Of a DNA stretch of 64,000 nucleotides, positions 1-63,683 are shown in pieces. Location: IMG/VR virus record IMGVR_UViG_3300027759_003166. One strand, written 5' to 3'. The notes beneath the pieces are model-generated. The model had not been told where the DNA came from. It made no database searches and worked only from the letters and a program-made list of their open reading frames with translations. Position numbers and translations under genes: made by a program. The stretch comes from a virus (lineage: Duplodnaviria > Caudoviricetes). Within the stretch, counting starts at the first letter, position 1. Each line of letters starts with the position of its first letter.

Positions 1-739
1 GTCTGCCTTTCATGTATGCGTTAGATATATTTGGCATACCGTGTCCTTGCACAGCTAATGTTTGCCCATGTTGTGTACCAGGTGCAATGTTCACTTCTAA
101 TGTACGACCATCTATAATAGTAAATGGTATATTTTTTCCTAGAATTGCATCTATACAATTAACCTGCAAGGTTTTAACTAAATCATCTCCCTGACGTTGA
201 AATTCATGATGTGGCATAACGTGTACTGAAAGATGTATGTCACCCCTGGGTGCATTACTAACAGAATCGTCGCCCATTCCTGATAATCTCAGTGTAGTTC
301 CGTCGACTACACCTGCTGGAATTTTAATTTCTAATACTTGATCTCTGCCCGACGGTAGAGTAATATTAGCAATAAGATCTTTTCCGTAATATGCTTCTTC
401 TAAGGTAATTTGAGTTTGGAGATTTAGATTTCTATTTCTCATAGGTGGCCCACGCCTACCAAACATATCTCCAAAAGGATGTCCACCACCAAATGCATGA
501 TGAAACATTTCTTCAAATCCCTGGGGTCCACCAAAGTGGAATCCCTGTGGTTGAGGATTATCGTATTGTTGTCTTCGTTGAGGGTCGCTTAATGTTTCGT
601 AAGCTGCCTGTACTTCTTGAAACTTAGCTTTATCACCGCCGCGATCTGGATGATGTTGATTAGCCATTCGGCGATAAGCAAGTTTAATGTCGTCTGGTCT
701 GGCGTTTCTATCCACGCCCAAAGTTGAGTAATGATCCAT
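1..739 (-). CDS. dnaJ: DnaJ-class chaperone (J-domain plus C-terminal domain), 3' end beyond window
   Basis: Manual translation from ATG at 739: MDHYSTLGVDRNARPDDIKLAYRRMANQHHPDRGGD (HPD motif); downstream IKIPAGVVDG..RGD and DnaJ_C-like segments. Not in the ORF track because it is open at the window edge. Confidence 0.9.
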   Translation of the reverse strand, partial: MDHYSTLGVDRNARPDDIKLAYRRMANQHHPDRGGDKAKFQEVQAAYETLSDPQRRQQYDNPQPQGFHFGGPQGFEEMFHHAFGGGHPFGDMFGRRGPPMRNRNLNLQTQITLEEAYYGKDLIANITLPSGRDQVLEIKIPAGVVDGTTLRLSGMGDDSVSNAPRGDIHLSVHVMPHHEFQRQGDDLVKTLQVNCIDAILGKNIPFTIIDGRTLEVNIAPGTQHGQTLAVQGHGMPNISNAYMKGR

Positions 740-2970: not shown

Positions 2971-3250
2971 CTTACGCTCCTCAGTGTGTTAATTTATTCA
3001 GTTTTTTCTTTCTTTTGTAAAACAAATACTCCGGGTTTTTCTGGATCTTCAACCCATTCAGTGTCGTCGCCTTCTACCAACCCATTTAGAACTTTTACAA
3101 TTGGTTTCATATTATGATCCTTCTGAGTTTTTGTTTTGTGCGGCAGCGGCAGCGGCCACAGCCTCGGCAGCGGCCAATACTTGTTTGACTAGTTTGTCAG
3201 CCGCATCGGCTAACTCTTTGTTGATCTTTTGTTGTTCTTCTGGTGTCATA

Positions 3251-4003: not shown

Positions 4004-4273
4004 TTATTTTATATTCTCAAATATCTCTTTTTGTTTATTATACCACAGTGTCCACGCCTCATTTTTTATCACACATTCGTGATATAATGTATAGTTGGTA
4101 GTGACTGCTTTTGTAAAATCAATGATACTTATGTGCTCACCTTCAATGGTTTTCAGTGGAGGACATTTTTCCATTAACACATCAGGTGCAATAGGAAACT
4201 TGGCTACTACAGGCACCGTTGTAGAACACGCTGTAAGAAATAATGCCAAACAAATTATTAATATTTTTTTCAT
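4004..4273 (-). CDS. o-spanin-like lipoprotein
   Basis: Lipobox LTAC, Pro/Cys segment, position beside endolysin. Confidence 0.7.
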   Translation of the reverse strand: MKKILIICLALFLTACSTTVPVVAKFPIAPDVLMEKCPPLKTIEGEHISIIDFTKAVTTNYTLYHECVIKNEAWTLWYNKQKEIFENIK

Positions 4274-48386: not shown

Positions 48387-49007
48387 CTATGCTCTTATAA
48401 GTTTAAAAAATTGATTATCACCGCTATTATGACATCCATCAAAAATAAAATGAGTATTCCAATCACCGATGCGATGACTTACATGTCTATACATTGGGTG
48501 CATATCATAATTGTCTCTATAAGGACAAAGATTTTCTCTATTAATTGCTTCAATAAATTGAAATAAGTATTTTTTAGGAAACGCATATAATGCATCTCCT
48601 ACAAACCGATCATTGGTCCAAAATGGTTCAATTTCTTTAAAAAGGAAATTAAATTTATTATAGTCTATATTCCAAGTGTTAACTGGAGTATTGAAATGAA
48701 TATCATATCTAGTAGCAATAATAAAATCTAAATCTTCGTAGATCAATTCTTCCATACTACGCTTATAGGTAGTACGAATCTGACTTCCTTGATATGGGAT
48801 AATAACAGCCTTAGATGCATTGTAATGCTCTATCATTCCTGTTAGTTCAGGATGTGGATATGTTGTGAGATAAACCCCTGCATTAGGAATAACATTAATA
48901 AGTTTTTCTTTTATGTTATCTTTTGCCAGCTTCCAATCTCGATCAGCTTTGGCTGTTCCTACTGCCTGTCCCCACGCGGCACCTGTTAATACTATTCCTA
49001 TTTTCAT
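48387..49007 (-). CDS. glycan-related hypothetical protein (divergent GQPRF family)
   Basis: MKIGIVLTG..DFIIATRYD..GDALY. Confidence 0.55.
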   Translation of the reverse strand: MKIGIVLTGAAWGQAVGTAKADRDWKLAKDNIKEKLINVIPNAGVYLTTYPHPELTGMIEHYNASKAVIIPYQGSQIRTTYKRSMEELIYEDLDFIIATRYDIHFNTPVNTWNIDYNKFNFLFKEIEPFWTNDRFVGDALYAFPKKYLFQFIEAINRENLCPYRDNYDMHPMYRHVSHRIGDWNTHFIFDGCHNSGDNQFFKLIRA

Positions 49008-49019
49008 TTATGTTTAATC

Positions 49020-49095
49020 TGGAGCGGGTGATCGGAGTCGAACCGACGACAATCACGTTGGCAACGTGGCGCTCTACCAGCTGAGCTACACCCGC
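49020..49095 (-). tRNA. tRNA-Gly(GCC)
   Basis: Loop UUGCCAA, U73, CCA. Confidence 0.93.
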
Positions 49096-49118
49096 ATAAT
49101 TTTATTTACTATCTTAGT

Positions 49119-49196
49119 TGGAGTGCCGGGTCGGATTTGAACCGACGGTTTGACAGTTTTGCAGACTGTTGCGTTGGGCCTCTCCGCCACCGACAC
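49119..49196 (-). tRNA. tRNA-Cys(GCA)
   Basis: Loop CUGCAAA, U73, CCA. Confidence 0.92.
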
Positions 49197-49203
49197 ACTT
49201 ATT

Positions 49204-49278
49204 TGGCGGGCCGCCTAGGACTCGAACCCAGACTTAACAGATTTGGAATCTGCGGTGCAGCCATTACACTAACGACCC
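49204..49278 (-). tRNA. tRNA-Trp(CCA)
   Basis: Loop UUCCAAA, G73, CCA. Confidence 0.9.
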
Positions 49279-49427
49279 TTTTTTCTTTTGAGGAAGTCCA
49301 CCTTTGGACCACTCTGTATTTTCGTATATTGCTAACTCATCTTTTGATATTCGTTTAGCAATAATACCATTGTTTATTAATATTGTTCCTATATTAGCCT
49401 CTGCTACTAGGGATACATATATTTGTT

Positions 49428-50087
49428 TTATGCAGGTTCTACAAGAAAATTCTTGTACCATTCTGCTTCTGTTAACATTTCAACAATTTTATAATTATTA
49501 TTGTTTATCCAACTGTCAAACTCATTGAGATTTGAATTACTCACTTCTACAAACAATAAAGGTCTACATCTTGCTATAGTATCAGCAAGTCCAATGAGTA
49601 CATCCATTTCCATGCCTTCTACATCAATTTTAATCAAATCAATTTTTTTATTATAAAATAAGGCATCGCCTGGTACTTGAGGAATACCCGATATCATCCC
49701 TTGATCTTTTAAACTTGTTGCACCTAAATTATCGTTAAACATTTCTCGAATGCCTGAAAACCCAAATCTAGAACCCATTGCTAGACCTAGAAAATCTATG
49801 TTAACGGATTTGCAATAATTCAATGCTATATTTTGTAATAGTAATTTATAGCTCTGTGCTATTGGCTCAATGACAATTATTTCTTTTGGATTCAGATACC
49901 AATCAAAAAATATAGTGTGATTACCCACATTTGCCCCAACATCTACAATTGTAAGATCTGGAGGAATATATTTTATTAGTTTATCCAATTCATCTCGTTC
50001 ATAAAATTCACATTTAAGATGATGACGTTGAATAGTATCATTACCATTATCTACCATAAATTTTAATTTTCTCATATATGCTTTCAT
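49428..50087 (-). CDS. FkbM family methyltransferase
   Basis: VDVGANVGNH, IEP, IKIDVEGME. Confidence 0.88.
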   Translation of the reverse strand: MKAYMRKLKFMVDNGNDTIQRHHLKCEFYERDELDKLIKYIPPDLTIVDVGANVGNHTIFFDWYLNPKEIIVIEPIAQSYKLLLQNIALNYCKSVNIDFLGLAMGSRFGFSGIREMFNDNLGATSLKDQGMISGIPQVPGDALFYNKKIDLIKIDVEGMEMDVLIGLADTIARCRPLLFVEVSNSNLNEFDSWINNNNYKIVEMLTEAEWYKNFLVEPA

Positions 50088-50092
50088 TTATT

Positions 50093-50182
50093 TGGCGGAA
50101 CGACTGAGACTCGAACTCAGAAACCCTCTTTCGAGAGTCGATGGATTAGCAATCCACTCCAATACCATTATGGGACCGTTCC
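50093..50182 (-). tRNA. tRNA-Ser(GCU)
   Basis: Long variable arm, loop UUGCUAA, G73, CCA. Confidence 0.92.
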
Positions 50183-50190
50183 TTAATTCT

Positions 50191-50303
50191 TGGTGCAACC
50201 GGTAGGTCTCGAACCTACAAAGGCGTTGTCTAGGACTTTGCCCCATCACCGGCTTTTCTTTTCAGAAGAAGCGGCAGGTCTGCCATATTCCACTCACGGT
50301 CGC
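50191..50303 (-). ncRNA. 113-nt tRNA-like RNA lacking an anticodon loop
   Basis: Acceptor GCGACCG/CGGUUGC plus ACCA, T-arm GUAGG-UUCGAGA-CCUAC, extended arm capped by GAAA. Confidence 0.6.
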
Positions 50304-50318
50304 AAGTATATTATATAC

Positions 50319-51056
50319 TTATTCGCCCGCTGTGTCAACTGATTTTACGTGAGCAAGTTCTTTGTTGATAAAGTCCCAAGCTCTTTGCAGTAACCTCTTG
50401 TAGTGAGGATTATCCGTTTTTTCTGGATATATGTCTGCTATATGTTTAACTTCAAATGCTCTATTTAGATATGCTGTCATTTTTGTTCTAAATGCTGCTG
50501 GATCTAAATGAGACAATTTAGGTATCACTGGCGAGATAAAATGTAATGCTTCAATAAAACGTGCATTAATTTCTGCCGGTTGTGCTCTATAAGCGGTATC
50601 TGGATCTTCCCGATCTGCTGGATTTCTTGCTGTACTATAACGTGTACTTTGATTAGCCCTATCCGACGATTTAAAATCGTCCATGGCGTGTCTTAGTTCG
50701 TGTGCAATAATAGTACGCATACGGTTAGAGGACAAGTAATCAGCATTTAAAGATATTGCCTTTTCTGCAGGATCCCATTCACCTAAGTGTGAGTCTGCTC
50801 CTGTTGCTCGTCCATTTAATCTACGTGCTAGATCTACAATAGCTTCATCTGAGGATATTGCCAAACGTATTCTATCCACGGCAGGAATTGGAGTGTCAAA
50901 TAGATCTCCAATGCGTCCAATATGTATTACGCCTGTTTCATCGTAGTCTAACTCTGTATCAGCGTATTGCTGTAGATAATCGTAGATAGTATCAGCAAGG
51001 CTCATAACAGCACGATCTTCTTCAGCAGTTTCAACTAGTAGTTCATGTATTCGCAT
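50319..51056 (-). CDS. HEXXH zinc-metallopeptidase-like protein, possible capsid-targeting N-terminus
   Basis: MRIHELLVE; IAHELRHAMD..EINARF; TAAATA just upstream. Confidence 0.6.
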   Translation of the reverse strand: MRIHELLVETAEEDRAVMSLADTIYDYLQQYADTELDYDETGVIHIGRIGDLFDTPIPAVDRIRLAISSDEAIVDLARRLNGRATGADSHLGEWDPAEKAISLNADYLSSNRMRTIIAHELRHAMDDFKSSDRANQSTRYSTARNPADREDPDTAYRAQPAEINARFIEALHFISPVIPKLSHLDPAAFRTKMTAYLNRAFEVKHIADIYPEKTDNPHYKRLLQRAWDFINKELAHVKSVDTAGE

Positions 51057-51068
51057 CTACTTATTTAG

Positions 51069-51156
51069 TGGAGGAAGATGTGAGATTCGAACTCACGGTC
51101 CCTTTCGAGACGACAGTTTTCAAGACTGTTGGTTTAAACCACTCACCCAATCTTCC
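51069..51156 (-). tRNA. tRNA-Ser(UGA)
   Basis: Long variable arm, loop CUUGAAA, CCA. Confidence 0.9.
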
Positions 51157-51164
51157 TTATGTGT

Positions 51165-51239
51165 TGGTGCGTCCGGATGGAATCGAACCACCATTACTAA
51201 GTTCGTAGCCTAGAGTATTCTCCATTATACTACGGACGC
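51165..51239 (-). tRNA. tRNA-Arg(ACG)
   Basis: Loop CUACGAA, CCA. Confidence 0.92.
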
Positions 51240-51246
51240 TTTAATT

Positions 51247-51320
51247 TGGTCCTCTCGACAAGAATCGAACTTGTAATGACCGGTTATCAGCCGATTGTTA
51301 TACCATTTAACTACAAGAGG
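51247..51320 (-). tRNA. tRNA-Ile(GAU)
   Basis: Loop CUGAUAA, CCA. Confidence 0.9.
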
Positions 51321-51405
51321 ATTTCGTGGTTGATTTCATCCTGAGCCACCCACTCTATTATACTATGTATAACGTGGGGCTTTGCTACACGACCAGGATC
51401 TGCTC

Positions 51406-51482
51406 TGGGGTAACCAATGGGGAACGATCCCATTCTATCACTTTCACAGAGTGAGGTGCTAAACCTTTACACTATGGTCACC
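51406..51482 (-). tRNA. tRNA-His(GUG) with G-1:C73
   Basis: Loop CUGUGAA, T-loop AUCGUUC, CCA. Confidence 0.88.
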
Positions 51483-51575
51483 ATATAAAAATACATTCCA
51501 AAAACTTCCGATTAGTTATGTCGGTCATAACGTTTATACAGGATAACTAATTCCTGCAGGAATGTATTTTTATAT
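51483..51575 (-). ncRNA. long-stem element IIc
   Basis: Perfect 17-bp inverted repeat atataaaaatacattcc/ggaatgtatttttatat; inner attagttat/ataactaat. Confidence 0.55.
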
Positions 51576-51579
51576 AATA

Positions 51580-51660
51580 CCATATAGAAACACATTGCTT
51601 CTGTCTCCAAGGACTTCTGATGGACTAGGTCACAGCCTAGGACAATGTGTTTTTATATGG
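51580..51660 (-). ncRNA. long-stem element IId
   Basis: 18-bp inverted repeat with one imperfect pair; two inner hairpins. Confidence 0.55.
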
Positions 51661-51732
51661 TAGGGGCACCCGGACTCGAACCGGGATAGATCGGGTAAAA
51701 GCCGACTATTCTAGCCTTTGAATTATACCCCC
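51658..51732 (-). tRNA. tRNA-Lys(UUU)
   Basis: Loop CUUUUAC, CCA. Confidence 0.88.
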
Positions 51733-51735
51733 ATA

Positions 51736-51810
51736 TGGTCCACAGCCCCAGAATCGAACTGGGCTCTCTCGGCTTAAGAGGCCGGACTTCGCCAGCAAAG
51801 TTTGCTGTGG
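51736..51810 (-). tRNA. tRNA-Lys(CUU)
   Basis: Loop CUCUUAA, A at position 8, CCA. Confidence 0.78.
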
Positions 51811-51872
51811 ATGGATTCGTAAATATTTTCTTTTACGTGCCATCCAGGACCATACGGGGGTCTAGGATGACA

Positions 51873-51896
51873 CTATCGTTTCGCTGAACGTTTCAT
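51873..51896 (-). other. 7-codon mini-ORF MKRSAKR with GGAG SD and downstream stems
   Basis: ATG AAA CGT TCA GCG AAA CGA TAG; GGAG 6 nt upstream. Confidence 0.35.
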
Positions 51897-51991
51897 GTCG
51901 TTCTCCTTTTAAAGTTTTCTCATAATAAAATACAGAGCACAAAATATAATTACTATCAATAGTAAGACCATAATATGCTCCTTGGTGTGGT

Positions 51992-52066
51992 TGGCAGGGA
52001 CTGAAGGTAACGCTCCTTCTCACCCAGTTTCAAAGACTGGTATCTGCTCTTATCGATTTAATCCCT
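51992..52066 (-). tRNA. atypical tRNA-Gln(UUG)
   Basis: Loop CUUUGAA, CCA; non-canonical T-loop AGCGUUA and D-loop. Confidence 0.65.
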
Positions 52067-52162
52067 ATGTTATCTAACTCTTGTTTTGTTAATACAGATA
52101 TTTTTAATTCCGGATGTTGAGTTATTTCCCCTGCCAAACAACACAATGCCCCAACAATAAAA

Positions 52163-52217
52163 CAGGATGCTTATTTTTCAATTAAAAGTTGAATTTAAAA
52201 TTTGCTGTTCGCATCCT
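52163..52217 (-). ncRNA. ACAGCAA hairpin element D (carries Lys-type anticodon stem-loop)
   Basis: AGGAUGC-GAACAGCAA...GCAUCCUG; inner UUCAA-CUUUUAA-UUGAA. Confidence 0.6.
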
Positions 52218-52222
52218 AAAAG

Positions 52223-52297
52223 TGGCTCCCTCGGGAAGGATCGAACTTCCGACCAATTGGTTAACAGCCAACTGCTCTACCTCTGAGCTACAAGGGA
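52223..52297 (-). tRNA. tRNA-Asn(GUU)
   Basis: Loop CUGUUAA, G73, CCA. Confidence 0.93.
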
Positions 52298-52305
52298 ATA
52301 ATAAA

Positions 52306-52516
52306 TTTGTAAGTAGTTCCGCCCATATTATCGGAACCATTCACCTTATTATACAAGGCCGGCAAGGTCTCGGTACGTTACTTGGGAGTCCTCCAAATGA
52401 TACGCCAATTGTATACTAGTCTTCCGACCAGCCGGGCATCGAACCCGCATCCTTTTACTGTTTCAGTTGTTCGAACGAACCTAGACAGCGTGACTTCTCT
52501 TGCTAACACTTACAAA
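52306..52516 (-). ncRNA. about 210-nt multi-hairpin RNA candidate with internal T-arm
   Basis: 9-bp terminal inverted repeat tttgtaagt/acttacaaa; GCGGG-UUCGAUG-CCCG; several further hairpins. Confidence 0.45.
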
Positions 52517-52519
52517 ACT

Positions 52520-52594
52520 TGGAGTCGCATACGGGTTTCGATCCCGTCTAGTCACCTTGAAAGGGTGATGACCTCGCCAGAAGTCTAATGCGAC
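52520..52594 (-). tRNA. tRNA-Glu(UUC)
   Basis: Loop CUUUCAA, CCA. Confidence 0.88.
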
Positions 52595-52603
52595 ATAATA
52601 AAA

Positions 52604-52662
52604 CAGGATAGCATTTTTTTTCATTAACGTTGAAAGTTTTTTGAGTTTGCTGTTGCTATCCT
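52604..52662 (-). ncRNA. ACAGCAA hairpin element E
   Basis: AGGAUAGC-AACAGCAA...GCUAUCCUG; inner UUUCA-ACGUUAA-UGAAA. Confidence 0.6.
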
Positions 52663-52721
52663 AAAACTTGGTGGATAACAGATGCCGACCGTAAGGTATA
52701 AGCACCCGCTTCTCCATAATT

Positions 52722-52798
52722 TGGCGCCCCGGACGGGAATCGAACCCGTGACCTCAACCGTGACAGGGTTGCGTGATAAACCGCTACACTACCGGAGC
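52722..52798 (-). tRNA. tRNA-Asp(GUC)
   Basis: Loop CUGUCAC, G73, CCA. Confidence 0.93.
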
Positions 52799-52804
52799 TA
52801 AACT

Positions 52805-52880
52805 TGGTGGAGGATAACGGATTCGAACCGTTTGCTCCTGGTTGCAAACCAGGTGTGTTAGCCAAGTATACCAATCCCCC
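52805..52880 (-). tRNA. tRNA-Ala(UGC)
   Basis: G3-U70, loop UUUGCAA, CCA. Confidence 0.88.
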
Positions 52881-52885
52881 GAATA

Positions 52886-52971
52886 TGGTGGAGGCGGATG
52901 GATTCGAACCACCGTGCTTTTTACGGGCAAGATTTACAGTCTTGTGCAATCAACCTCTCTGCCACGCCTCC
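52886..52971 (-). tRNA. tRNA-Tyr(GUA)
   Basis: Class II, loop CUGUAAA, CCA. Confidence 0.93.
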
Positions 52972-52979
52972 AAAATTGT

Positions 52980-53134
52980 TACACACTCCCGCTACGCTTT
53001 TTGACGCGATTCAAAGTCGCGAAAGAGAATGTGTATATTAAAACATACTAATGAAATTGCACTACCTCAGTTTCACGCTGAGTTACCAGTAGTCACGGAG
53101 GCATTGTCCTCCTGCAAATAGTATGCTTTAATAT
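52980..53134 (-). ncRNA. long-stem elements IIe (52980-53036, imperfect) and IIf (53035-53134)
   Basis: IIf 16-bp inverted repeat atattaaaacatacta/tagtatgctttaatat (G-U on minus strand). Confidence 0.5.
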
Positions 53135-53239
53135 GACGAATTTTTTTATCTACAAGAAGATAATCCATCCTCGTCACCGCCCGTTTACCCCATGTTTATA
53201 GTGCAGGGTGTGGTCCTCGTTACCACATATTCACACTCG

Positions 53240-53276
53240 AAAAGCAAAAACCCCAGGGTGTTTAGTCCTAGGGTCC
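53240..53276 (-). terminator. intrinsic terminator of the leader (attenuator terminator)
   Basis: GACCCUAGG/CCUGGGGUU 9-bp stem followed by U-tract (UUUUUGCUUUU). Confidence 0.7.
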
Positions 53277-53299
53277 TTTGGAGTTAGTGTGTAGTTGTA

Positions 53300-53443
53300 T
53301 TACACTCTGGTCTCCTGGGACCCCTGGCTAATATAGCCCTCTGGTGTGCGATCATTAGATAGACTATCAAACGCCAACCAGCATGAGGGCATCTGCCCTA
53401 ATTTGGCTATCGTATGTTTATAGTTTCTAACTGCTGATTGCAT
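53300..53443 (-). CDS. 47-aa leader peptide containing all 20 amino acids
   Basis: MQSAVRNYKHTIAKLGQMPSCWLAFDSLSNDRTPEGYISQGSQETRV* by manual translation; below ORF-track cutoff. Confidence 0.6.
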   Translation of the reverse strand: MQSAVRNYKHTIAKLGQMPSCWLAFDSLSNDRTPEGYISQGSQETRV

Positions 53444-53500
53444 TTTACTTTCCAATTTACCTTTAAATTACTACACGGCATTATTGCTGTGTATGTATGA

Positions 53501-53529
53501 ATTATACATTTATTTAGCCTCGCTGTCAA
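53501..53529 (-). promoter_or_regulatory. sigma70 consensus promoter P1 of the tRNA array
   Basis: TTGACA-17-TATAAT (plus tgtcaa 53524-53529, attata 53501-53506). Confidence 0.85.
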
Positions 53530-53585
53530 CCTGTTTTTGCCTTTTTGAACAAAATATTTTGACTTTGTTGCTGTGTATGTGACTA

Positions 53586-53614
53586 ATTGTATAGTGATTG
53601 TGTTACCCTGTCAA
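53586..53614 (-). promoter_or_regulatory. sigma70-type promoter P2 of the tRNA array
   Basis: TTGACA-17-TACAAT (plus tgtcaa 53609-53614, attgta 53586-53591). Confidence 0.75.
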
Positions 53615-53724
53615 CTAGTTTGTTGTATTTTTACAACAGAAGATTTGTCCAAACTGTGTTTCAGTTCTTGACTTTGTTAGGGCAACTGTGTTTAAATAAG
53701 TGCTACTATAACTATAAGGAACGT

Positions 53725-54510
53725 ATGGCAAGAGACCTACTAGTAATTTTACGTAGCTGTACCATTGTACACGCTGCCAGCAACTCAACCAGATACATCA
53801 ATGTTTCTAAACACGAATTAGTCAAACACTGTATCAGCAGTTTGGTTAATAGCATCAATCAAGTAACTAATCATAATATTCGACTAGTTGTCTTAGATGA
53901 TCATAGCAGCCCCGAAGCTGTAGATGATATTAAAACCATAATTGGGCATTGTAAGTTTCCCACAGAATTTATACCTGTGTTAGATGGAACAGGCAATGGA
54001 CATACAATGAAATGTGTCTATGATCAGGTAGAACAGAATTGTACAGATCTATGGTATCACATTGAAGATGACTATCTACACGTACCAGAGGCTATTCAAG
54101 ATATGATCGATTCGGTGGATCAATTTGAATCCAACACAGGTAAATTAGTTGCTATTAATCCTCACGATGACATATGGAGGTATACAAAACAAATTTATCA
54201 TAGTATACTGTTACTTGGTCCATACAGACATTATAGGACAGTTCAACATACTACCTATACTTGTTTGGCCAGCCGTAACCTGTATAATCGTTACCGTAAT
54301 ATTTTCCAAGATTTGGTTAAACTTACTATTAACAAGGAAGGTTGGGTCGAGGACCGGTCAATAAATCAAATTTGGCAACAACCAGATGTTATGTTATTCA
54401 GTCCAATACCTGGTCTAGGATTTCATATTATGGATGAAAGCGGCAAGGATCCTTATTTTGATATTGACGCATTATGGAACAGTGTTCCTAAACTATGGAG
54501 AAAAGAATGA
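53725..54510 (+). CDS. GT-A fold glycosyltransferase-like protein
   Basis: VVLDDHS, YHIEDDYLH; start MARDLL after AAGGA. Confidence 0.7.
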   Translation: MARDLLVILRSCTIVHAASNSTRYINVSKHELVKHCISSLVNSINQVTNHNIRLVVLDDHSSPEAVDDIKTIIGHCKFPTEFIPVLDGTGNGHTMKCVYDQVEQNCTDLWYHIEDDYLHVPEAIQDMIDSVDQFESNTGKLVAINPHDDIWRYTKQIYHSILLLGPYRHYRTVQHTTYTCLASRNLYNRYRNIFQDLVKLTINKEGWVEDRSINQIWQQPDVMLFSPIPGLGFHIMDESGKDPYFDIDALWNSVPKLWRKE

Positions 54511-55349
54511 AAGTATATGACTGTTTTACATTTTTCAATGAGTTAGATCTATTAGAAGTGCGTTTAAACGAACTTTATAATAGCGTAGATTATTTTGTCA
54601 TTGCTGAGGCTAATATGAGTCACAGTGGCAAACCCAAAGAATATGTATTAGAACAAAATTGGGAAAGATTTAAACCTTTCCACGATAAGATACGTTATCT
54701 TAAGATTGATGACTTTCCTGTAACCAACAATAGTTGGGTACGTGAGAAGTTTCAACGTGATGCTCTTAAGCGTGGAATCACTGATAAACAAGCAGATGAT
54801 TTGATCATAATTAGTGATCTTGACGAAATTCCACGTGGAGATATTATAGAATTGATCAAAGAAGATGAGAACAAATATGAACGTTATGTATTATGTGTTC
54901 CATTATTTAGATACAAGTTTAATTTCTTAAAATGGCATCACCCTGTGATCAATCAACAAATGATTGTAACTAGGGCTCACGTATTCACTAACCCTGAAAA
55001 AGAACGTGATTTTACTCATGCCTGGCTACCACCCGCGCCCGATGTTGTTTATCTACATCATGCTGGTTGGCACTTTAGCTACTTAGGTGATGATAAGAAT
55101 GCAGTACATAAATTACAAAACTTTGCTCATACAGAACAAAATATACCTGAAATTGTTGATGTGTTCAATATTGATCGAATGATAGAAGAAAAATGTGGAC
55201 CAAATCCTGCTGACATTGAAAAGTTTGAATACGTTCAACTTGATGATTATTTTCCTAAATGTGTAGTTGATAATCAAGAAAAATACAAAGATTTAATTAT
55301 TCCAAACGCTACTATACCAATCTTTAAATTCTATCCGGAGGACGTATAA
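54507..55349 (+). CDS. GT17 (MGAT3-like) glycosyltransferase
   Basis: YDCFTFFNELDLLEVR, REKFQRD, SDLDEIP, GWHFSY. Confidence 0.85.
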   Translation: MKVYDCFTFFNELDLLEVRLNELYNSVDYFVIAEANMSHSGKPKEYVLEQNWERFKPFHDKIRYLKIDDFPVTNNSWVREKFQRDALKRGITDKQADDLIIISDLDEIPRGDIIELIKEDENKYERYVLCVPLFRYKFNFLKWHHPVINQQMIVTRAHVFTNPEKERDFTHAWLPPAPDVVYLHHAGWHFSYLGDDKNAVHKLQNFAHTEQNIPEIVDVFNIDRMIEEKCGPNPADIEKFEYVQLDDYFPKCVVDNQEKYKDLIIPNATIPIFKFYPEDV

Positions 55350-56233
55350 TGAAAGTTTATGATATGTTTTCATTCTATAATGAATTTGAAATTTTAGAAA
55401 TAAGATTAAAAGAATTATGGGATACAGTAGATTATTTTGTATTAGTTGAGTCTAACACTACTTTTACAGGATTACCCAAGGAATACTTCTTTGAAAATAA
55501 TAAAGAAAGATTTGCTCCATATTTAGAAAAAATTCGTCATATTAAACTTGATGACTCAATTGAGGAACAACGCAGAGTATTGCCTGGGCAAATAGATGAT
55601 ACCTGGGTACGTGAAAAATATCAACGTTACATAGCTTATAAAGAGCTATCAGATGTTTCTCCTGAGGATCTTTTGATAATCAGTGATTGTGATGAAATAC
55701 CACGTGCTGACATGATTGAAATGATCAAGGAGGATGAAAACGATTATGATCGTTATATCATATATATAGCTCAATTTAATTACAAAATTAACTATATGAA
55801 AATACAACATCCTAGTAGCCATCCTGCAATTATAACTGTTAGAGGTCGTGTATTTACAAATCCTCAACAAGAAAGAGAATATTCATTCTATTGGAACCCA
55901 AAACCAAATAATACAATATCAGTACATCATGGCGGCTGGCACTTTACCTATTTTGGTAATGAAGATCATTGTTTGAACAAAATTAAAAGTTTTGCTCATA
56001 CTGAACAAAATGTTGGAAAAATTGTTGATGAATATAATATTTCATGGATGATTCGAAACAAATACGGTCATGAAGGAATTAATAGTAAGCATAACGAAAG
56101 ATTTGAGTATGTATTAGTTGATGACTATTTTCCTAAATGCATAACAGAAAATTTAGATAAGTGGGATCATATGATCATACCAGATGCGGTGTTCAGAGTT
56201 GATGACCTTTACAGAGAAAATGAAAAATATTAA
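55349..56233 (+). CDS. GT17 (MGAT3-like) glycosyltransferase
   Basis: YDMFSFYNEFEILEIR, REKYQR, SDCDEIP, GWHFTY. Confidence 0.85.
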   Translation: MKVYDMFSFYNEFEILEIRLKELWDTVDYFVLVESNTTFTGLPKEYFFENNKERFAPYLEKIRHIKLDDSIEEQRRVLPGQIDDTWVREKYQRYIAYKELSDVSPEDLLIISDCDEIPRADMIEMIKEDENDYDRYIIYIAQFNYKINYMKIQHPSSHPAIITVRGRVFTNPQQEREYSFYWNPKPNNTISVHHGGWHFTYFGNEDHCLNKIKSFAHTEQNVGKIVDEYNISWMIRNKYGHEGINSKHNERFEYVLVDDYFPKCITENLDKWDHMIIPDAVFRVDDLYRENEKY

Positions 56234-56975
56234 TATGACTAATTTAAGAACACCTCCAACTGCTAAACCCCATAATCCAACATCCGATCAAGAAACATCA
56301 ATTAAATTTGCTGGTGAATGGGATTCTGAACTAGCGGTTAAAATTCAAAATGCATGGTTTAGTTCAATTTCTATGGAATTCAAATTACCAGAATGGGTTC
56401 GTTATATGGATGGTGCCAGTGGAAAAAAATATAGATATTTTATTAACAACATGATTCAATCCCTGGACGATGCTAGATATTTAGAAATTGGGACCTGGGC
56501 AGGATCGACTGCATGTTCTGCTCTATATGGAAACAAGGTTAAAACAACCTGTGTTGATAATTGGGCAGAGTTCGGCGGCCCAAAAGATTTATTCTTTTCA
56601 AATATAGACAAATTAAAATCTCCAGACATTGATTTTTCTTTTATAGAAAATGATTTTAATCTTATAGATTATACATCTATAGGAAAATTTAACGTGTATA
56701 TGTATGATGGAGCTCATTCTGAAGAAAATCAATACAACGGAGTTGCTAGGGTATTACCTGCATTAGATGACACCTTCTTACTGGTTGTTGATGATTGGAA
56801 TTGGAATGCTGTTAGATCAGGAACACTTAATGCTATTAACGATAAAAATCTCAGCATAGTATGCAGTATAGAAATTCGAACAATGCAACAAGAGGTATGG
56901 TGGGCTCCTGATATTTTAGGATCCGACAGCGACTGGCATAATGGATACTTTATAGCATTAATTAAAAAAGGATAA
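56220..56975 (+). CDS. class I SAM methyltransferase (Methyltransf_24-like)
   Basis: YLEIGTWAGS, YMYDGAH, VVDDWNW; start uncertain. Confidence 0.75.
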   Translation: MKNINMTNLRTPPTAKPHNPTSDQETSIKFAGEWDSELAVKIQNAWFSSISMEFKLPEWVRYMDGASGKKYRYFINNMIQSLDDARYLEIGTWAGSTACSALYGNKVKTTCVDNWAEFGGPKDLFFSNIDKLKSPDIDFSFIENDFNLIDYTSIGKFNVYMYDGAHSEENQYNGVARVLPALDDTFLLVVDDWNWNAVRSGTLNAINDKNLSIVCSIEIRTMQQEVWWAPDILGSDSDWHNGYFIALIKKG

Positions 56976-56977
56976 CA

Positions 56978-57757
56978 ATGACAACATTTTCACATTCAGG
57001 AACTACAGGTGATACATTTTGTGCCTTAGTAATTCCAAAAATATTTGGCGAAGGAGAAGTATATCTCAAGTTGAATAACCTAGAACATGTAATAAACACT
57101 AAATTAGGGTGGAGCAATAAAGGAAATCGGCATGAAGGTCGTATGACTGAAAATGATTATGAAGTAATGCGTGAATTAATTTTACATCAAAAATACATTA
57201 CTAAATTTGAAATTTGGAATGGTCAAGGAATTGATTATGAATTAGAAGATGCATACGATCATTTAGAGACAGGATTCTTTCCTAGAAATTTTAGCAATCA
57301 ATATGCATTAGCTGCCGGAATAGATCCTAAGAAGCATGAAAAAGAATTACAAATGCTTCCGTGGTTGGAGTGCCGAGAGCCCCGTAAATTTCCTGGAAGA
57401 CCTATTGTTATACATCGTAGTCCTAATTACCAAGAAGGTAATCCAGTAGATAGCCCACATTGGAGAAAAATTATAGATCGAGGTTTAGCAGATCAAGCGG
57501 TATTTGTAGGCGCTGATAGCGATCACGATTACTTTGAAAATCTTTACAAAATACGTGTACCTTATTATAGAACTCCAGACTGGATGGAATTAGCCCGTGT
57601 AATACAAGGTAGTGAACTTATGATTACTAGCATGGGAGGTCCAAGTGCTTTATGTTTATGTCTTGGAAAAACAATGATGCTAGAACCTCGCAAAAATGAA
57701 CCACACGAAAGATTAGAAATCAACTATCCTCTCAGAGTTAATATACAATATTTTTAA
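56978..57757 (+). CDS. glycosyltransferase-like protein (GT9-like)
   Basis: HSGTTGD N-terminus, ELARVIQGSELMI. Confidence 0.55.
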   Translation: MTTFSHSGTTGDTFCALVIPKIFGEGEVYLKLNNLEHVINTKLGWSNKGNRHEGRMTENDYEVMRELILHQKYITKFEIWNGQGIDYELEDAYDHLETGFFPRNFSNQYALAAGIDPKKHEKELQMLPWLECREPRKFPGRPIVIHRSPNYQEGNPVDSPHWRKIIDRGLADQAVFVGADSDHDYFENLYKIRVPYYRTPDWMELARVIQGSELMITSMGGPSALCLCLGKTMMLEPRKNEPHERLEINYPLRVNIQYF

Positions 57758-57767
57758 AAGGTAAATT

Positions 57768-58433
57768 ATGACAATAGAAATTAAATGGACAGGTGATTTA
57801 AATTCTCCAGATGGAGAAAAATTAATCGATGCCTTTAAACAAGCATATAGAATGAATCATAAATTATCTGATTTTGTATTGAATATGCGTGGAATGAGCG
57901 GTAAAAAATATAGAGTATTAATTAACACATTGATTGAAAACACGTCTGATGTTAGATATTTAGAAATAGGATCTTATAAAGGATCAACCGCTTGTGCAGC
58001 AATCTATGGCAATGATGCAAAATTATCTTGTATTGATACATTCATATGGAGCTCTAGTCAAGAGCTAAAAGATAACATTGCTCTGGCTTCAACTAAAAAT
58101 GTAGATTTTAAATTATTTGAGCAAGATTTTAGAACCATTGACTATTCTAACATTGGAAAATATAATGTATATATGTACGACGGCCCTCACGATGAGAGAG
58201 ATCAGTTTGACGGAATTTTAATTGCACAACCAGCTTTGGAAGATAAATTTTTATTAATAGTTGATGATTGGAATGGGTCTCACGTGCAGAACGGTACAAT
58301 AAATGCCATGAAATATCTAGGGTTAAATGTGTTAGCAAGCGTGGAGATTTTTTCACCCAACGAACCAATCACAGATGAAAAAAGTGATTGGCATTTTGGA
58401 TATTTCATAGGTTACGTTGAAAAATCTCAGTAA
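57768..58433 (+). CDS. class I SAM methyltransferase, paralog of 56220
   Basis: YLEIGSYKGS, YMYDGPH, IVDDWNG. Confidence 0.75.
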   Translation: MTIEIKWTGDLNSPDGEKLIDAFKQAYRMNHKLSDFVLNMRGMSGKKYRVLINTLIENTSDVRYLEIGSYKGSTACAAIYGNDAKLSCIDTFIWSSSQELKDNIALASTKNVDFKLFEQDFRTIDYSNIGKYNVYMYDGPHDERDQFDGILIAQPALEDKFLLIVDDWNGSHVQNGTINAMKYLGLNVLASVEIFSPNEPITDEKSDWHFGYFIGYVEKSQ

Positions 58434-58456
58434 CCAATTCATTAAACTTTTACAGA

Positions 58457-59176
58457 ATGAAAATAGCAATAATAATATGTGGACAGCCTAGGTTTACTGA
58501 TGATTTTAAAAACACCTTAACTAATCTTAAAGGTTATACTCATGCCGATTGGTTTTGTTATTTCACAGGCAACAATCAAGGAATCCCATCTAATAAACTT
58601 CCTTCAGAGTTTTGGAGAGAAATTACTGATACAAAATTAGCAGCAAATACTCTTCAATCTATGTTACCACCGACTAATTTTATTAGATCATTTGAATTGT
58701 CTGATAGTGACTATATTGAACTACCAAAAGAACCTCTAGAAGTTCCTACGCCTGCTTATAAAATGTGGTATAATTTATTTCAAGTTAATCAACTTCGACT
58801 TAACTATGAAAAACAAAATAACATTATATACGATATGGTTGTACGCATACGTCCTGATGCAGGGTTAGTAGATGAAGTAGATCTAAATAATCTAATGGAA
58901 CATATTAATCACTCGGTAATAACTCCTATAAACAAAATTGCAGGACACCTTAACCTTAGTCCCGACTCTCCTCAAATGTGTGATTGTCTTGCTATTGCTT
59001 CTCCAGAAAATATGAATATATATTGTGATATGATTCACGACGCTCATAACAATTTCTTTACTCAAACTAGGTATACTTGGCATACAGAAAGTGCTCATGC
59101 ATTACATTTAAAAAATCATAATGTTACTATAACACCGTGTAATTTTAAAATATCAATACGCGGTGATGCTAATTAA
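58457..59176 (+). CDS. GQPRF-family hypothetical protein
   Basis: MKIAIIICGQPRF..YDMVVRIRPD..CDCLAI. Confidence 0.6.
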   Translation: MKIAIIICGQPRFTDDFKNTLTNLKGYTHADWFCYFTGNNQGIPSNKLPSEFWREITDTKLAANTLQSMLPPTNFIRSFELSDSDYIELPKEPLEVPTPAYKMWYNLFQVNQLRLNYEKQNNIIYDMVVRIRPDAGLVDEVDLNNLMEHINHSVITPINKIAGHLNLSPDSPQMCDCLAIASPENMNIYCDMIHDAHNNFFTQTRYTWHTESAHALHLKNHNVTITPCNFKISIRGDAN

Positions 59177-59219
59177 GCATCCAATAAATATTCAGATTAT
59201 TAAATAGAAAGACAATAAA

Positions 59220-59846
59220 ATGCCAAATACAATATACATTGATAGTACATACTGCCCTACAGATTTATGTCTTATTGGATCAGACTGTAATACCGATAAG
59301 GCTCCCTACTCTTTAAACAGTGTTTGTTCAAAAGCACGAAAGGGATATACCGCAGTTTACGAGCTATTATTTTCATCTATGCGAAACAAAGAAATTAATT
59401 TTTGTGAGATAGGAATAGAGGCTGGCGCATCAGTTCAGATGTGGGAACAATATTTCTCTAAGGCTAATTTATTTGCATTTGAATATGATGAGAATAAAAT
59501 TGAATTATGTAAAAAATTAGCACCTAACACTAATTTTTTAAAAACTGATGTATCAAATGAACAAATCTTACATCAAACATTTAAAGATACAGATAAAATG
59601 TTTGACATAATTATTGATGATTCAAATCACCATCAACCGGATCAACTTAAAATAATAAAAGTATCTGTTGATTATTTAAAGCCTGGTGGTATACTAATTA
59701 TTGAAGATATTTACAGAGAGTATACAGAAGATATTTTTGATTCAGTTATTGGTGATGAGTGGGCATTTAAAGCATTTATTATTTGTGATCATCAAAACAG
59801 AAGCGGGCATGACAATGATAAAATATGGGTAGGTATTAAAAAATGA
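59220..59846 (+). CDS. sugar O-methyltransferase-like protein
   Basis: EIGIEAGASV.MWEQYF, IIIDDSNH, LKPGGILIIED. Confidence 0.75.
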   Translation: MPNTIYIDSTYCPTDLCLIGSDCNTDKAPYSLNSVCSKARKGYTAVYELLFSSMRNKEINFCEIGIEAGASVQMWEQYFSKANLFAFEYDENKIELCKKLAPNTNFLKTDVSNEQILHQTFKDTDKMFDIIIDDSNHHQPDQLKIIKVSVDYLKPGGILIIEDIYREYTEDIFDSVIGDEWAFKAFIICDHQNRSGHDNDKIWVGIKK

Positions 59847-60610
59847 AAGTAGCATTGGTAACTGGGGGACTTCCTAGATTCACAGTTGACTTTGTAAAGT
59901 TAATGAATCAATTAAAAGGATTTGACTCTGCTGATATTTACATGACATTATGGTCCACTGACTGGGCGATATCAGCAGAAGAGGCCAGGGCTAAAATAGA
60001 AAAAATATTACCACCTCAATATAATCTAGCTAAAATAACCATCGTTGATCAACCAGAATATGAACTACCACCTCATTCTACAAATTTGTCACCACCAGTT
60101 GATTCAAAATATATAACATGGTGGTATAAGCGTTTATATCTAGGATCTCTTGGACTTTCCTGGGCACATGATCTTATAGATAAAGAATACGACGCTGTTG
60201 TTGTATTTAGATTAGATGTTTCTGCAGATAGGGAGATTGATCTAAGTACCTATGATTTTTCAAATAAACAATTAATATGTTCTAACAATGGACATTCTGG
60301 ATTTCCAGATTATAAAATCAATGATCAATTAGTGTTTGGTTCTCAGGAATCTATAAAACTTTTATGTGACATGGGAAAAAATGTTAAAGAATTAGTTCCT
60401 TTATCTGATCCACAGTGGTCAAAAACAGATATAATAGATGGATCTGTATGGACCTGGAGCAGAGAGTGTTTAATAGGGTATTACATGAAACAAGTTGATG
60501 TACCGTTGATATATGGTAATTTTAATGTAGTAATGAACTCTCAAGGTAGATCACGATTTACGGATAAACATTTTCATCATCCTGTTTCAATAGATCCTAC
60601 AGAAATTTAA
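59843..60610 (+). CDS. GQPRF-family hypothetical protein
   Basis: MKVALVTGGLPRF..YDAVVVFRLD..NDQL. Confidence 0.6.
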   Translation: MKVALVTGGLPRFTVDFVKLMNQLKGFDSADIYMTLWSTDWAISAEEARAKIEKILPPQYNLAKITIVDQPEYELPPHSTNLSPPVDSKYITWWYKRLYLGSLGLSWAHDLIDKEYDAVVVFRLDVSADREIDLSTYDFSNKQLICSNNGHSGFPDYKINDQLVFGSQESIKLLCDMGKNVKELVPLSDPQWSKTDIIDGSVWTWSRECLIGYYMKQVDVPLIYGNFNVVMNSQGRSRFTDKHFHHPVSIDPTEI

Positions 60611-60615
60611 AAATT

Positions 60616-61338
60616 ATGAATATATTAATACCTATGGCAGGATTAGGGTCGAGATTTTTGACCAAAGGTTTTCATCAACCTAAACCATTAATTGATGTAA
60701 ACGGTACTCCTATGATTATAAGAGCAATAGAAAGTCTTGGTATCGATAATGCCAGATACTTATTTGTTATATCAAAAAATGAATATTCAGAAAGTGTTAA
60801 AAAAGAAATTTCAAAATATGTAAATTGTAATTTCATTGAAATTAATTATATTACAGAAGGACCTGCCTGTTCTGCATTATTGTTCAAAGATCAAATTAAC
60901 AACGATGATGAATTAATTATTGCCAACTGTGATCAAATTATGGAATGGAGTGCAGATTTATTTTTATTAAATGTTCGGCAATACGATGGTGCAGTAGTAA
61001 CCTATCACGAAACAACTGATAAAAATAGTTATGCTAAGGTTAATAAACAAGGTCAGGTTATAGAGATACAAGAAAAAAATGTAATAAGTAATATATCATT
61101 AAACGGAATACATTATTGGAAAAATGGTAGCTACTTTGTTGATAGCGCTCAAGAAATGATCGATGATGATTATAGGGCTCCTAATGGAGAATTCTATGTT
61201 GGACCATCGTACAATTATATGATTAAAAACAGATTAACAGTAGGTATATATCATATACCTAATCAGATGCATCACCCAGTGGGTGTACCAGACGATTTAG
61301 AAAAATTTATTAAATATGAAAATTCAAAAATTAGATAA
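60616..61338 (+). CDS. nucleotidyltransferase (NTP_transferase family)
   Basis: IPMAGLGSRF..PKPLI, ANCDQ, EFYV. Confidence 0.85.
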   Translation: MNILIPMAGLGSRFLTKGFHQPKPLIDVNGTPMIIRAIESLGIDNARYLFVISKNEYSESVKKEISKYVNCNFIEINYITEGPACSALLFKDQINNDDELIIANCDQIMEWSADLFLLNVRQYDGAVVTYHETTDKNSYAKVNKQGQVIEIQEKNVISNISLNGIHYWKNGSYFVDSAQEMIDDDYRAPNGEFYVGPSYNYMIKNRLTVGIYHIPNQMHHPVGVPDDLEKFIKYENSKIR

Positions 61339-61639
61339 CATGTGGAGAGGATGGTTTATTGGCAACTTTGAACCAACTGTATTAAAAACTAAAGACTTTG
61401 AAGTAGGTATATTAACACACAAGAAAGATGAAGTATGGCCAGAACATTATCATGCCATTGCTACAGAATATAATGTATTAATAAGCGGGCACATGACAGT
61501 ATGTGGAGAAGAACTACATTCTGGAGATATTTTTATTATAGAACCCAACGAAATAGCAAGACCTGTGTTCCATGAAGATTGTATAATAGTATGTGTAAAA
61601 ACACCAAGTGTACCAAAGGATAAGTATGAAGTTTTTTAG
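61316..61639 (+). CDS. cupin-fold protein
   Basis: GWFIGNF, HYH..ATEYN, VKTP. Confidence 0.7.
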   Translation: MKIQKLDNMWRGWFIGNFEPTVLKTKDFEVGILTHKKDEVWPEHYHAIATEYNVLISGHMTVCGEELHSGDIFIIEPNEIARPVFHEDCIIVCVKTPSVPKDKYEVF

Positions 61640-62819
61640 AAACAGAGAAGAAATAGATATAAACAAATACTTCATAGCAACATATGTTATGAAATCGTCA
61701 ACTTCACTTAAAGATGCTGCGTGGAATCTTGCTATAGGTCAAAGTGTAGGAAATCCTAGTGTTCGTAATGAATGGGAAACTGATGACTTATTTGAAAATC
61801 ACAGTTGTATCATTTTAGGTGATGAAAGCTATATGTCCACACAGATCTCGGGTATTGTAGAAATTGCATTTCCTGTAGCAAACATTGATTGGGATACAGA
61901 CGGAATTAGTCAACTTCTTTGCCACCTGATGGGAGGACAAGTTGATATTGATATTATTAAAAAATGTCGTTTGATAAAACTTGAATTGCCAAACAATGTT
62001 ACTCAGCATTTTTTAGGTCCTAAATTTGGAATTACAGGTTTTAGACAATTCACAGGACAATACAATAAACCATTATTTGGTGGTATCATTAAACCAAAGA
62101 TTGGAGTTTCTCCAGAAGTATTGCTAGAAATGGTTAAGCAAATGGTCGATGGTGGAGTTGATTTTATTAAAGAAGATGAAATCATGAGCAATCCCGTATG
62201 TGCTCCATTGGAACATAGGGTAGACATGATTGCTAACTATCTAGCCAAACAAAGTCGTAAAGTTGTATTCTGTCACACCATTAATGCAGATCCACATATT
62301 ATTATAGACCGTGTTAAGCGTGTACATGAGTTAGGTGGTAATGGAGTTCACGTTAATGTGTTTAGTGGAATTGGTGTGTATAATAGTATTCGCAAATTAG
62401 ATCTACCTTTATATCTACATTATCAAAGTAGCGGAGCGAAATTACTAACTGATGTAAATCACAGGTTTAGTATTAGTTGGCCAGTAATGTGCCAGTTAGC
62501 AACACTAATGGGTGTTGATACTATACAAACTGGCATGGTTGGAGGATATAGTAATGATGATCCAGTGGAGATTAAAGAATGTTTAGAAATATTAAGAGCA
62601 GGTAATACTGTGCCTGCACTTAGTTGTGGAATGCATCCCGGATTAGTTAATAAGGTCACCGAACTTGCAGGGTTAGATTATTTGGCCAATGCAGGTGGAG
62701 CAGTTCATGGTCACCCTGGCGGTACAGTTGCAGGTGCGCGAGCCATGAGACAAGCAATAGATAAAACGCATAATACAGAATATGATCAAGCAATTAACAA
62801 ATGGGGATTAATAATATGA
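61626..62819 (+). CDS. RuBisCO-like protein (form IV-type)
   Basis: AIGQSVG, GPKFG, GGIIKPKIG, GVDFIKEDE, SCG, GGAVHGHP. Confidence 0.88.
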   Translation: MKFFRNREEIDINKYFIATYVMKSSTSLKDAAWNLAIGQSVGNPSVRNEWETDDLFENHSCIILGDESYMSTQISGIVEIAFPVANIDWDTDGISQLLCHLMGGQVDIDIIKKCRLIKLELPNNVTQHFLGPKFGITGFRQFTGQYNKPLFGGIIKPKIGVSPEVLLEMVKQMVDGGVDFIKEDEIMSNPVCAPLEHRVDMIANYLAKQSRKVVFCHTINADPHIIIDRVKRVHELGGNGVHVNVFSGIGVYNSIRKLDLPLYLHYQSSGAKLLTDVNHRFSISWPVMCQLATLMGVDTIQTGMVGGYSNDDPVEIKECLEILRAGNTVPALSCGMHPGLVNKVTELAGLDYLANAGGAVHGHPGGTVAGARAMRQAIDKTHNTEYDQAINKWGLII

Positions 62820-63661: not shown

Positions 63662-63683
63662 AAATTTATAAAGGAAAATAATA

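Follow-up and report, generated by a model that had tools for sequence, protein, structure and literature searches.

A leader peptide containing all 20 amino acids as part of a putative transcription attenuator ahead of a phage transfer RNA array

The subject of this work is a leader in the viral record IMGVR_UViG_3300027759_003166 (Duplodnaviria; Caudoviricetes) from IMG/VR, a giant phage of lake water of which a stretch of 64,000 nucleotides (nt), referred to here as the window, was analysed. The leader precedes an array of 29 transfer RNA (tRNA) genes covering 20 amino acids and contains a 47-codon open reading frame (ORF) whose predicted product comprises every amino acid. We propose that it is probably a ribosome-mediated (leader-peptide) transcription attenuator that heads the tRNA array and senses the overall supply of aminoacyl-tRNA. 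The proposal is founded on sequence features and their conservation, on covariation in both of two alternative helices, on selection for a complete amino-acid set and on the invariable presence of a tRNA array downstream. The class of mechanism is known, but there is novelty both in the sensing principle, which relies on a complete set of amino acids and not on codon runs, and in the target, which is a tRNA array. In a full-text literature search neither the control of phage tRNA genes by a leader peptide nor a leader spelling all twenty amino acids was found described.

The reasons for which large phages possess tRNA arrays, and the control of these arrays, are open questions. Codon-usage matching, compensation for the decay of host tRNAs and escape from tRNA-cutting defences have been proposed as reasons for their presence. 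If the proposed demand-controlled switch is real, these phages gauge their decoding capacity and provide tRNAs on need alone, and leader-peptide attenuation extends from one amino acid to all and from biosynthetic genes to tRNA genes. The leader family is a rare case of selection on the amino-acid set of a peptide and not on its sequence. As a small, naturally occurring sensor of translation stress the element could also be put to use as a reporter.

Layout of the leader

The leader is encoded on the (-) strand of the window and consists of the following elements, given in the direction of transcription.

53614-53586, (-) strand: second, upstream tandem promoter, sigma-70-type TTGACA-17-TACAAT, 11/12 matches
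53529-53501, (-) strand: leader promoter, perfect TTGACA-17-TATAAT, 12/12 matches
53448-53453, (-) strand: putative weak Shine-Dalgarno-like motif GGAAAG in A-rich surroundings, 4 nt ahead of the ATG
53443-53300, (-) strand: leader ORF, ATG at 53443, 47 codons, TAA at 53302-53300; peptide MQSAVRNYKHTIAKLGQMPSCWLAFDSLSNDRTPEGYISQGSQETRV, 47 amino acids
53324-53318, (-) strand: 5' strand of helix P1a, GGGGUCC, codons 40-42
53315-53312, (-) strand: 5' strand of helix P1b, GGAG, predicted by RNAalifold to pair with CUCC/CUUC; also Shine-Dalgarno-like
53305-53289, (-) strand: apical hairpin P2 (GUGUA / UACAC), its 5' arm overlapped by the stop codon UAA at 53302-53300
53283-53280, (-) strand: 3' strand of P1b, CUCC, predicted by RNAalifold
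53276-53270, (-) strand: 3' strand of P1a, GGACCCU, also the first seven bases of the terminator 5' arm
53276-53240, (-) strand: intrinsic terminator, stem GGACCCUAGG / CCUGGGGUUU, 9-nt loop, U tract UUUUUGCUUUU

An A-rich 5' region of about 50 nt precedes the ORF in the leader transcript. At the predicted 5' end of this transcript a small hairpin (ACACAGC..GCCGUGU; 53473-53492, (-) strand) is possible; relatives keep a hairpin with differing sequences. A preliminary description, made from the letters of the window alone, had listed the perfect promoter, a 47-codon ORF with 20 amino acids, 37 different codons and 12 different residues at its start, a GC-rich terminator with a U tract, the pairing of GGGGUCC with GGACCCU, and 29 downstream tRNAs covering 20 amino acids. 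All of these were found again. The stem of the terminator has 10 base pairs (bp), the pairing is exact and overlaps the terminator 5' arm, and the number of 29 tRNAs is reached when a tRNA-Gln(UUG) detected at a relaxed threshold is included.

In the peptide of the window the set of 20 amino acids is complete within the first 35 codons, and residues 1-12 are all different, which has a probability of 20!/8!/20^12 = 1.5% under uniform usage. Each amino acid is present in about one or two copies, and there are no codon runs for any sensed amino acid. The ORF uses 37 distinct codons, covers 30 of 32 decoding classes (codons grouped by a purine or pyrimidine ending) and has codons read by 27 of the 29 phage tRNAs, as many as are matched by only 0.17% of the 46-codon segments from the phage's own genes. 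These codons include an internal AUG as well as an AUA, which correspond to the extra tRNAs with a CAU anticodon. Among 59 ATG-initiated ORFs of 41-55 amino acids in the window the leader is the sole one with all 20. The chance that a 47-residue peptide contains the full set is nevertheless 3.2-3.4% with phage or family composition, and 2.5% of the real 47-residue segments from the long ORFs of the window contain it. A single complete peptide is therefore only mildly surprising, and the significance rests on the comparison of the family.

A family of leaders selected for the complete amino-acid set

Homologous leaders were gathered from IMG/VR contigs, which derive from uncultured phages, via three independent anchors, namely a divergently transcribed glycosyltransferase gene, a motif of the structured RNA that follows the terminator and a nucleotide motif within the leader. 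With an nhmmer model based on eight leaders 158 hits were obtained, and after deduplication and removal of one truncated hit out of 132 there remained 131 distinct leaders including that of the window, that is 130 distinct homologs without it. The public sequencing runs that contain DNA of the window are lake and freshwater metagenomes. A scan of bacterial genomes with GGGTCC..AAGGACCCYAGG was discarded as too unspecific; it yielded 120 hits, mostly in high-GC genomes, of which 0 fit the leader model.

Peptide identity falls below 30% across the family while ORF, length, terminator and alternative stem persist. The peptides have a median length of 48 amino acids (range 41-55), and a promoter of the type TTGACN-16..18-TANNNT lies upstream in 127 of the 131 leaders. 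The comparison of related leaders for amino-acid diversity, ORF length and the two stems had been suggested in the preliminary description, which also regarded the lack of an ORF in homologous leaders as an argument against attenuation. Among the 130 distinct homologs diversity, length and both stems are kept while the peptide diverges, and the ORF is retained in all but one leader hit having a recognisable terminator.

All 20 amino acids occur in 106 of the 131 peptides, whereas 5.4 are expected from composition and length, and 19 further peptides have 19. Shared ancestry does not explain this finding, since it holds among representatives that were chosen greedily to be less than 35% identical: seven of 15 are complete versus 0.60 expected (Poisson-binomial P = 1.3e-7) and all 15 contain at least 17 different amino acids. 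Divergent complete members are L045 (41 amino acids), L070 and L065 (42 each) and L004 (45). Cysteine is present in 91% of the peptides (62% under independent placement) at 0.98 copies per peptide distributed over 26 alignment columns, and pairs of peptides that are 45-85% identical share the cysteine column in only 19% of cases. Histidine is present in 99% (69% under independent placement) at 1.17 copies per peptide in 23 columns. Both residues behave as though their presence and not their position were selected. In 95 of the 106 complete peptides the full set is already reached upstream of P1a. A gene of 53-58 codons located just after the terminator in relatives served as a control; its product is complete in 3 of 90 cases, which is the chance level, and has a mean of 16.6 distinct amino acids. 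As judged by sequence comparison, selection for a complete amino-acid set is thus demonstrated in the leader family.

Two mutually exclusive structures

The terminator stem is formed by 53276-53267 with 53257-53248 and folds at -14.4 kcal/mol. An automated terminator scan missed it since loops were limited to 8 nt. Across 72 sequences 98% of the alignment cells are paired, and compensatory changes occur in five of nine pairs. The loop (53258-53266, (-) strand; consensus GAUUAAAAAC) is conserved well beyond the needs of a terminator and may be a binding site.

The antiterminator was predicted by RNAalifold on the RNA that exists before the terminator 3' arm is made. It exceeds the pairing noted in the preliminary description and comprises the 7-bp helix P1a ((A/G)GGGUCC with GGACCC(U/C)), helix P1b and the apical hairpin P2. 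Because GGACCCU is shared by P1a and the terminator 5' arm, the two structures exclude one another. Of 130 leaders, 108 have GGGUCC:GGACCC, 12 GGGUUC:GAACCC, two GGGUCU:AGACCC and one GGGUAC:GUACCC; three of the remaining leaders contain a G-U intermediate and four have one mismatch. The pair that flanks P1a is A-U in 28, G-C in 21 and G-U in 10 of 65 leaders. These values derive from a count per sequence and an end-anchored alignment, in which P1a is 97% paired with three covarying pairs; a plain MAFFT alignment split the P1a 5' strand between two registers and thereby understated the pairing. Sliding the partner by one column lowers the pairing of P1a plus P1b to 62-70%. For P1b 86% of the cells are paired and all three pairs show changes on both sides, with the alignment being less certain in this region. 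The sequence GGGUCC is read in two frames among the homologs (giving G-S or R/G-V), which places the constraint at the nucleotide level.

The stop codon lies inside the antiterminator, in the inner fold formed by P1b and P2, in 130 of 130 leaders, and the P1a 5' strand begins a median of 21 nt before it. Relative to shuffled sequences the mean z of the inner fold is -3.4, and compensatory variants are visible in the arms of P2. In the window the antiterminator folds at -21.8 kcal/mol and the full-length states containing either the terminator or P1a differ by 1.8 kcal/mol, a gap that fits a kinetically decided switch. Taken together with completeness beyond chance in the family, the covariation of both helices supports the earlier notion of a pan-tRNA attenuator. 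GGAG had been considered as the signal of a start-stop mini-ORF, which was dropped as the main interpretation; it pairs with CUCC in the antiterminator, and a dual role is possible.

The tRNA array downstream of the leader

Transcripts that pass the terminator would contain two further elements.

53227-52985, (-) strand: structured non-coding RNA of about 240 nt, multi-hairpin, between terminator and tRNA-Tyr; first product of read-through
52971-44531, (-) strand: tRNA array, 29 tRNAs for 20 amino acids; tRNA-Tyr comes first, 269 nt past the U tract

With default settings ARAGORN finds 28 tRNAs and none for Gln; a relaxed threshold adds the tRNA-Gln(UUG) at 51992-52066 (-). This tRNA is atypical, since ARAGORN needs the relaxed threshold to detect it and Rfam does not report it at E<=1. 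The position of the leader is invariable: each of the 83 loci for which 2.5 kilobases (kb) or more of sequence past the leader are available has same-strand tRNAs there, the first of them at a median distance of 434 nt and with a median of 19 tRNAs within 8 kb. In the window the first 12 tRNAs (52971-51069) are not separated from the terminator by any strong promoter.

More than 120 viral contigs contain the motif AACGAGGWCC..AAACGGGCGG of the structured RNA, and inspection by eye shows covariation in the helices of this RNA. Rfam has no family that fits the leader or the RNA behind it (E<=10 on 52960-53560; E<=1 on 44000-54000); the hits were confined to sub-threshold noise, e.g. mir-644 on the other strand. 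In the relatives L011, L013, L008, L007 and L001 the extra gene of 53-58 codons (motif ...EQLQKLIQDKFERA...) is placed between terminator and structured RNA; the window, L006 and L009 are without it. Where it is present, the switch would control a protein gene as well.

Proposed mechanism

From this arrangement we infer that the leader ORF is translated, in which direction the switch works and what triggers it. Transcription would be initiated at one or two strong promoters of the sigma-70 type, and the leader ORF would be engaged by a ribosome. During smooth decoding the ribosome would keep up with the polymerase, reach the final seven codons and the stop codon, and cover P1a, P1b and the 5' arm of P2. 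With the antiterminator held open by the ribosome, GGACCCU would join the terminator stem and transcription would terminate in the U tract near 53240. A delay of the ribosome within roughly the first 35-40 codons, or the absence of a ribosome, would let the antiterminator form once GGACCCU is made. The terminator would then not form and the polymerase would proceed into the structured RNA and the tRNA genes. Since the leader contains every amino acid as well as codons for 27 of 29 tRNAs, a shortage of any charged tRNA should switch tRNA synthesis on. A sufficient supply of charged tRNAs should switch it off.

We lean towards regarding the leader as a test of the whole decoding system, in which selection would maintain one or more codons for each amino acid, and for almost all tRNA species of the phage, within a frame of about 47 codons. 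In this view the shortage of any single charged tRNA releases replacement tRNAs together with the structured RNA and restored decoding shuts their synthesis off again. Such a device would act as a homeostat and possibly as a trigger of counter-defence. The shortage could arise from starvation, from codon-usage mismatch, from phage-induced decay of host tRNAs or from host anticodon nucleases, and these are candidates for the natural trigger. A link to the anticodon nucleases PrrC, RloC and AriB is speculation.

Alternative explanations

The leader could report the availability of ribosomes alone, either as a timing device or as a read-out of host shut-off. Individual tRNAs would not be sensed and the composition of the peptide would be irrelevant. 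It speaks for this possibility that the RNA architecture works with any ORF, that the antiterminator should form by default without a ribosome and that the perfect sigma-70 consensus implies early transcription by the host polymerase. On the other hand, such a device gives no reason for the position-independent retention of 20 amino acids or for the raised diversity of codon classes. The latter became apparent when the amino-acid sequences were held fixed and synonymous codons were redrawn from phage usage: the leaders of the family have 35.5 distinct codons versus 32.0 after the redraw, and 28.6 of the 32 decoding classes versus 26.5. We consider this explanation unlikely.

A second alternative is that the ORF is simply an early gene for a small protein and has a terminator of its own. 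The core W...DRTPE would then be functional, the pairing would only tune the stability of the mRNA or the leakiness of the terminator, and completeness would be a legacy of an ancestor. In fact, the ORF is kept in homologs, the shared core is conserved and varies mostly at synonymous sites, as would fit a small protein with a function of its own, and leader peptides acting in trans exist, e.g. peTrpL. None of this accounts for completeness below 35% identity (seven of 15 versus 0.6 expected), for cysteine and histidine residues that move their position yet stay present, or for a matched control gene that is complete in just 3 of 90 cases. Furthermore, the nucleotides beyond DRTPE are conserved despite being read in two different frames, the stop codon is always located within the covarying antiterminator, and the peptide has no matching family in Pfam or PHROGs.

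The preliminary description had held that conservation of a specific peptide sequence would speak against it. In this respect the outcome is divided: close relatives share the core AKQAGFMPSxWLAINSLSxDRTPE, but it becomes faint in distant members whose amino-acid set is nonetheless complete. Among residues of one amino-acid type, those present in a single copy are more conserved than those present in several (Mantel-Haenszel odds ratio 2.96). This is the pattern predicted by selection for completeness, and it explains much of the core. Completeness selection acting on single-copy residues and on decoding classes accounts for part of the conservation of W...DRTPE, and a role at the level of the peptide may exist in addition. 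A small-protein gene as the whole explanation appears quite improbable.

Sequence-specific arrest by the peptide, as in TnaC or SecM, in which a W...D...P motif stalls the ribosome on a small molecule or factor and thereby sets the switch, is suggested by the alignment of WLAFDSLSNDRTP from the window with WFNIDNKIVDHRP, which we take to be the corresponding part of TnaC, at W, D, D and P; it is very unlikely, because the spacing varies among homologs (9-14 residues from W to P, 11-21 nt from the Pro codon to P1a) and distant members without the motif keep both the switch and the complete set.

Besides the synonymous variation of the core, several observations weigh against the proposed sensing of the overall aminoacyl-tRNA supply. 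The codon classes of the leaders do not clearly track the tRNAs carried by each phage (odds ratio 1.3 over 23 loci whose arrays are truncated). Many relatives have just one Glu codon upstream of P1a, and it is situated 2-4 codons before this helix, so that a ribosome stalled there would partly cover P1a. Shine-Dalgarno sequences are weak, with a GGA, GAG or AGG motif at -16..-4 in 96 of 131 homologous leaders. No conserved partner of GGGUCC that could act as an anti-antiterminator was found in the upstream RNA, although GGGUCC is paired with a mean probability of 0.62 in the upstream RNA alone; read-through may consequently be the default when the leader is free of ribosomes. Searches of deposited phage genomes (blastn and tblastn) gave no relative of the window, and no cultured relative was found. 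A 275-nt contig from a lake metatranscriptome, 100% identical to 53488-53214, starts a few bases past the expected start site and ends 26 nt beyond the U tract. It is compatible with a transcript that begins at the predicted start and runs past the terminator; as an assembled contig it reveals neither transcript ends, including the 3' ends relevant here, nor levels.

Finally, strong internal promoters at 50338, 48267, 47321, 46773 and 44432 serve the distal tRNAs independently. The one at 50338-50310 (-) matches the consensus perfectly, and neither of the two that were inspected (50338 and 48267) is followed by a leader ORF. Because of these promoters the switch would gate the structured RNA and the proximal tRNAs and would merely add to transcription of the distal ones. 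The gating of the array envisaged in the preliminary description would therefore apply to the proximal 12 tRNAs, which are without a strong promoter of their own, but not to the array as a whole, as the internal promoters bypass the switch for the distal tRNAs.

Relation to known attenuators

The whiB7/wblC attenuator of Actinobacteria is similar in several respects. It combines a promoter-proximal upstream ORF (uORF), a Rho-independent terminator and a competing antiterminator (PMC10274678). Efficient translation leads to termination and stalling to read-through, the direction that we infer for the phage switch, and general translation stress is sensed (PMC10274678). The amino acids sensed are those contained in the uORF. 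One codon can suffice for sensing, as the change of a single Trp codon strongly reduced the response to Trp deprivation (PMC10274678). In Mycobacterium smegmatis the whiB7 uORF contains every amino acid but Cys, i.e. 19 of 20 (PMC10274678). Unlike the phage leader, which precedes tRNA genes, whiB7/wblC attenuation controls a transcription factor in a bacterial chromosome. Alanine makes up 25-40% of the uORF but 5.7% of the residues in the phage family. In many species several amino acids are missing from the uORF, whereas in the phage family completeness itself appears to be selected. There is no sequence relationship. The phage leader may thus work in a manner similar to the whiB7/wblC attenuator without being a member of that group.

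The classical leaders trpL, hisL, leuL, thrL, pheL and ilv, as well as pheM, also combine a leader ORF with mutually exclusive helices, and their stop codon is positioned so that a ribosome completing the ORF blocks the antiterminator. However, they carry runs of one to three cognate codons, report one or few amino acids and control biosynthetic or synthetase genes, while the phage leader is devoid of runs and targets a tRNA array. The anti-antiterminator of the 1:2 type, typical of classical leaders, is not established in the phage leader. That attenuation logic is used for genes of the translation apparatus too is exemplified by pheM-pheST.

T-box riboswitches likewise choose between terminator and antiterminator ahead of translation-related genes in response to tRNA charging. 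They bind one uncharged tRNA directly and do not need translation, whereas an ORF is conserved in the phage leader; a T-box was not detected by Rfam in the regions and at the E values given above.

Neighbouring elements and genes

The leader promoters are immediately adjacent to a divergent glycosyltransferase block (GT2-like and GT17-like; 53725-64000, (+) strand). Within the array, a tRNA-like element of about 115 nt (50186-50302, (-) strand) directly follows the promoter at 50338-50310. It has an acceptor-like stem GCGACCG/CGGTTGC, the T arm GGTTCGAGACC and an encoded CCA, and is not called a tRNA by ARAGORN or Rfam. Related loci contain tRNA-like sequences of the form GGAGCCC...GGGCTCCACCA with an encoded CCA end and a long insertion, at about 4145-4235 (-) in L011 and at about 3039-3130 (-) in L008. 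They sit just upstream of the first called tRNA and are missed by ARAGORN.

Two paralogous genes for FkbM-type methyltransferases (47555-48217 and 49428-50087, both on the (-) strand) are located among the tRNA genes. Past the array, the region 40421-44187 (-) encodes a DUF2828/DUF7788 protein, an AAA_33 kinase and a metallophosphoesterase. The DUF2828/DUF7788 protein corresponds to PHROG 850, annotated as 'RNA-binding protein' and present in about 700 deposited phages, and the genes of this region may fit a neighbourhood devoted to RNA maintenance, quality control or repair.

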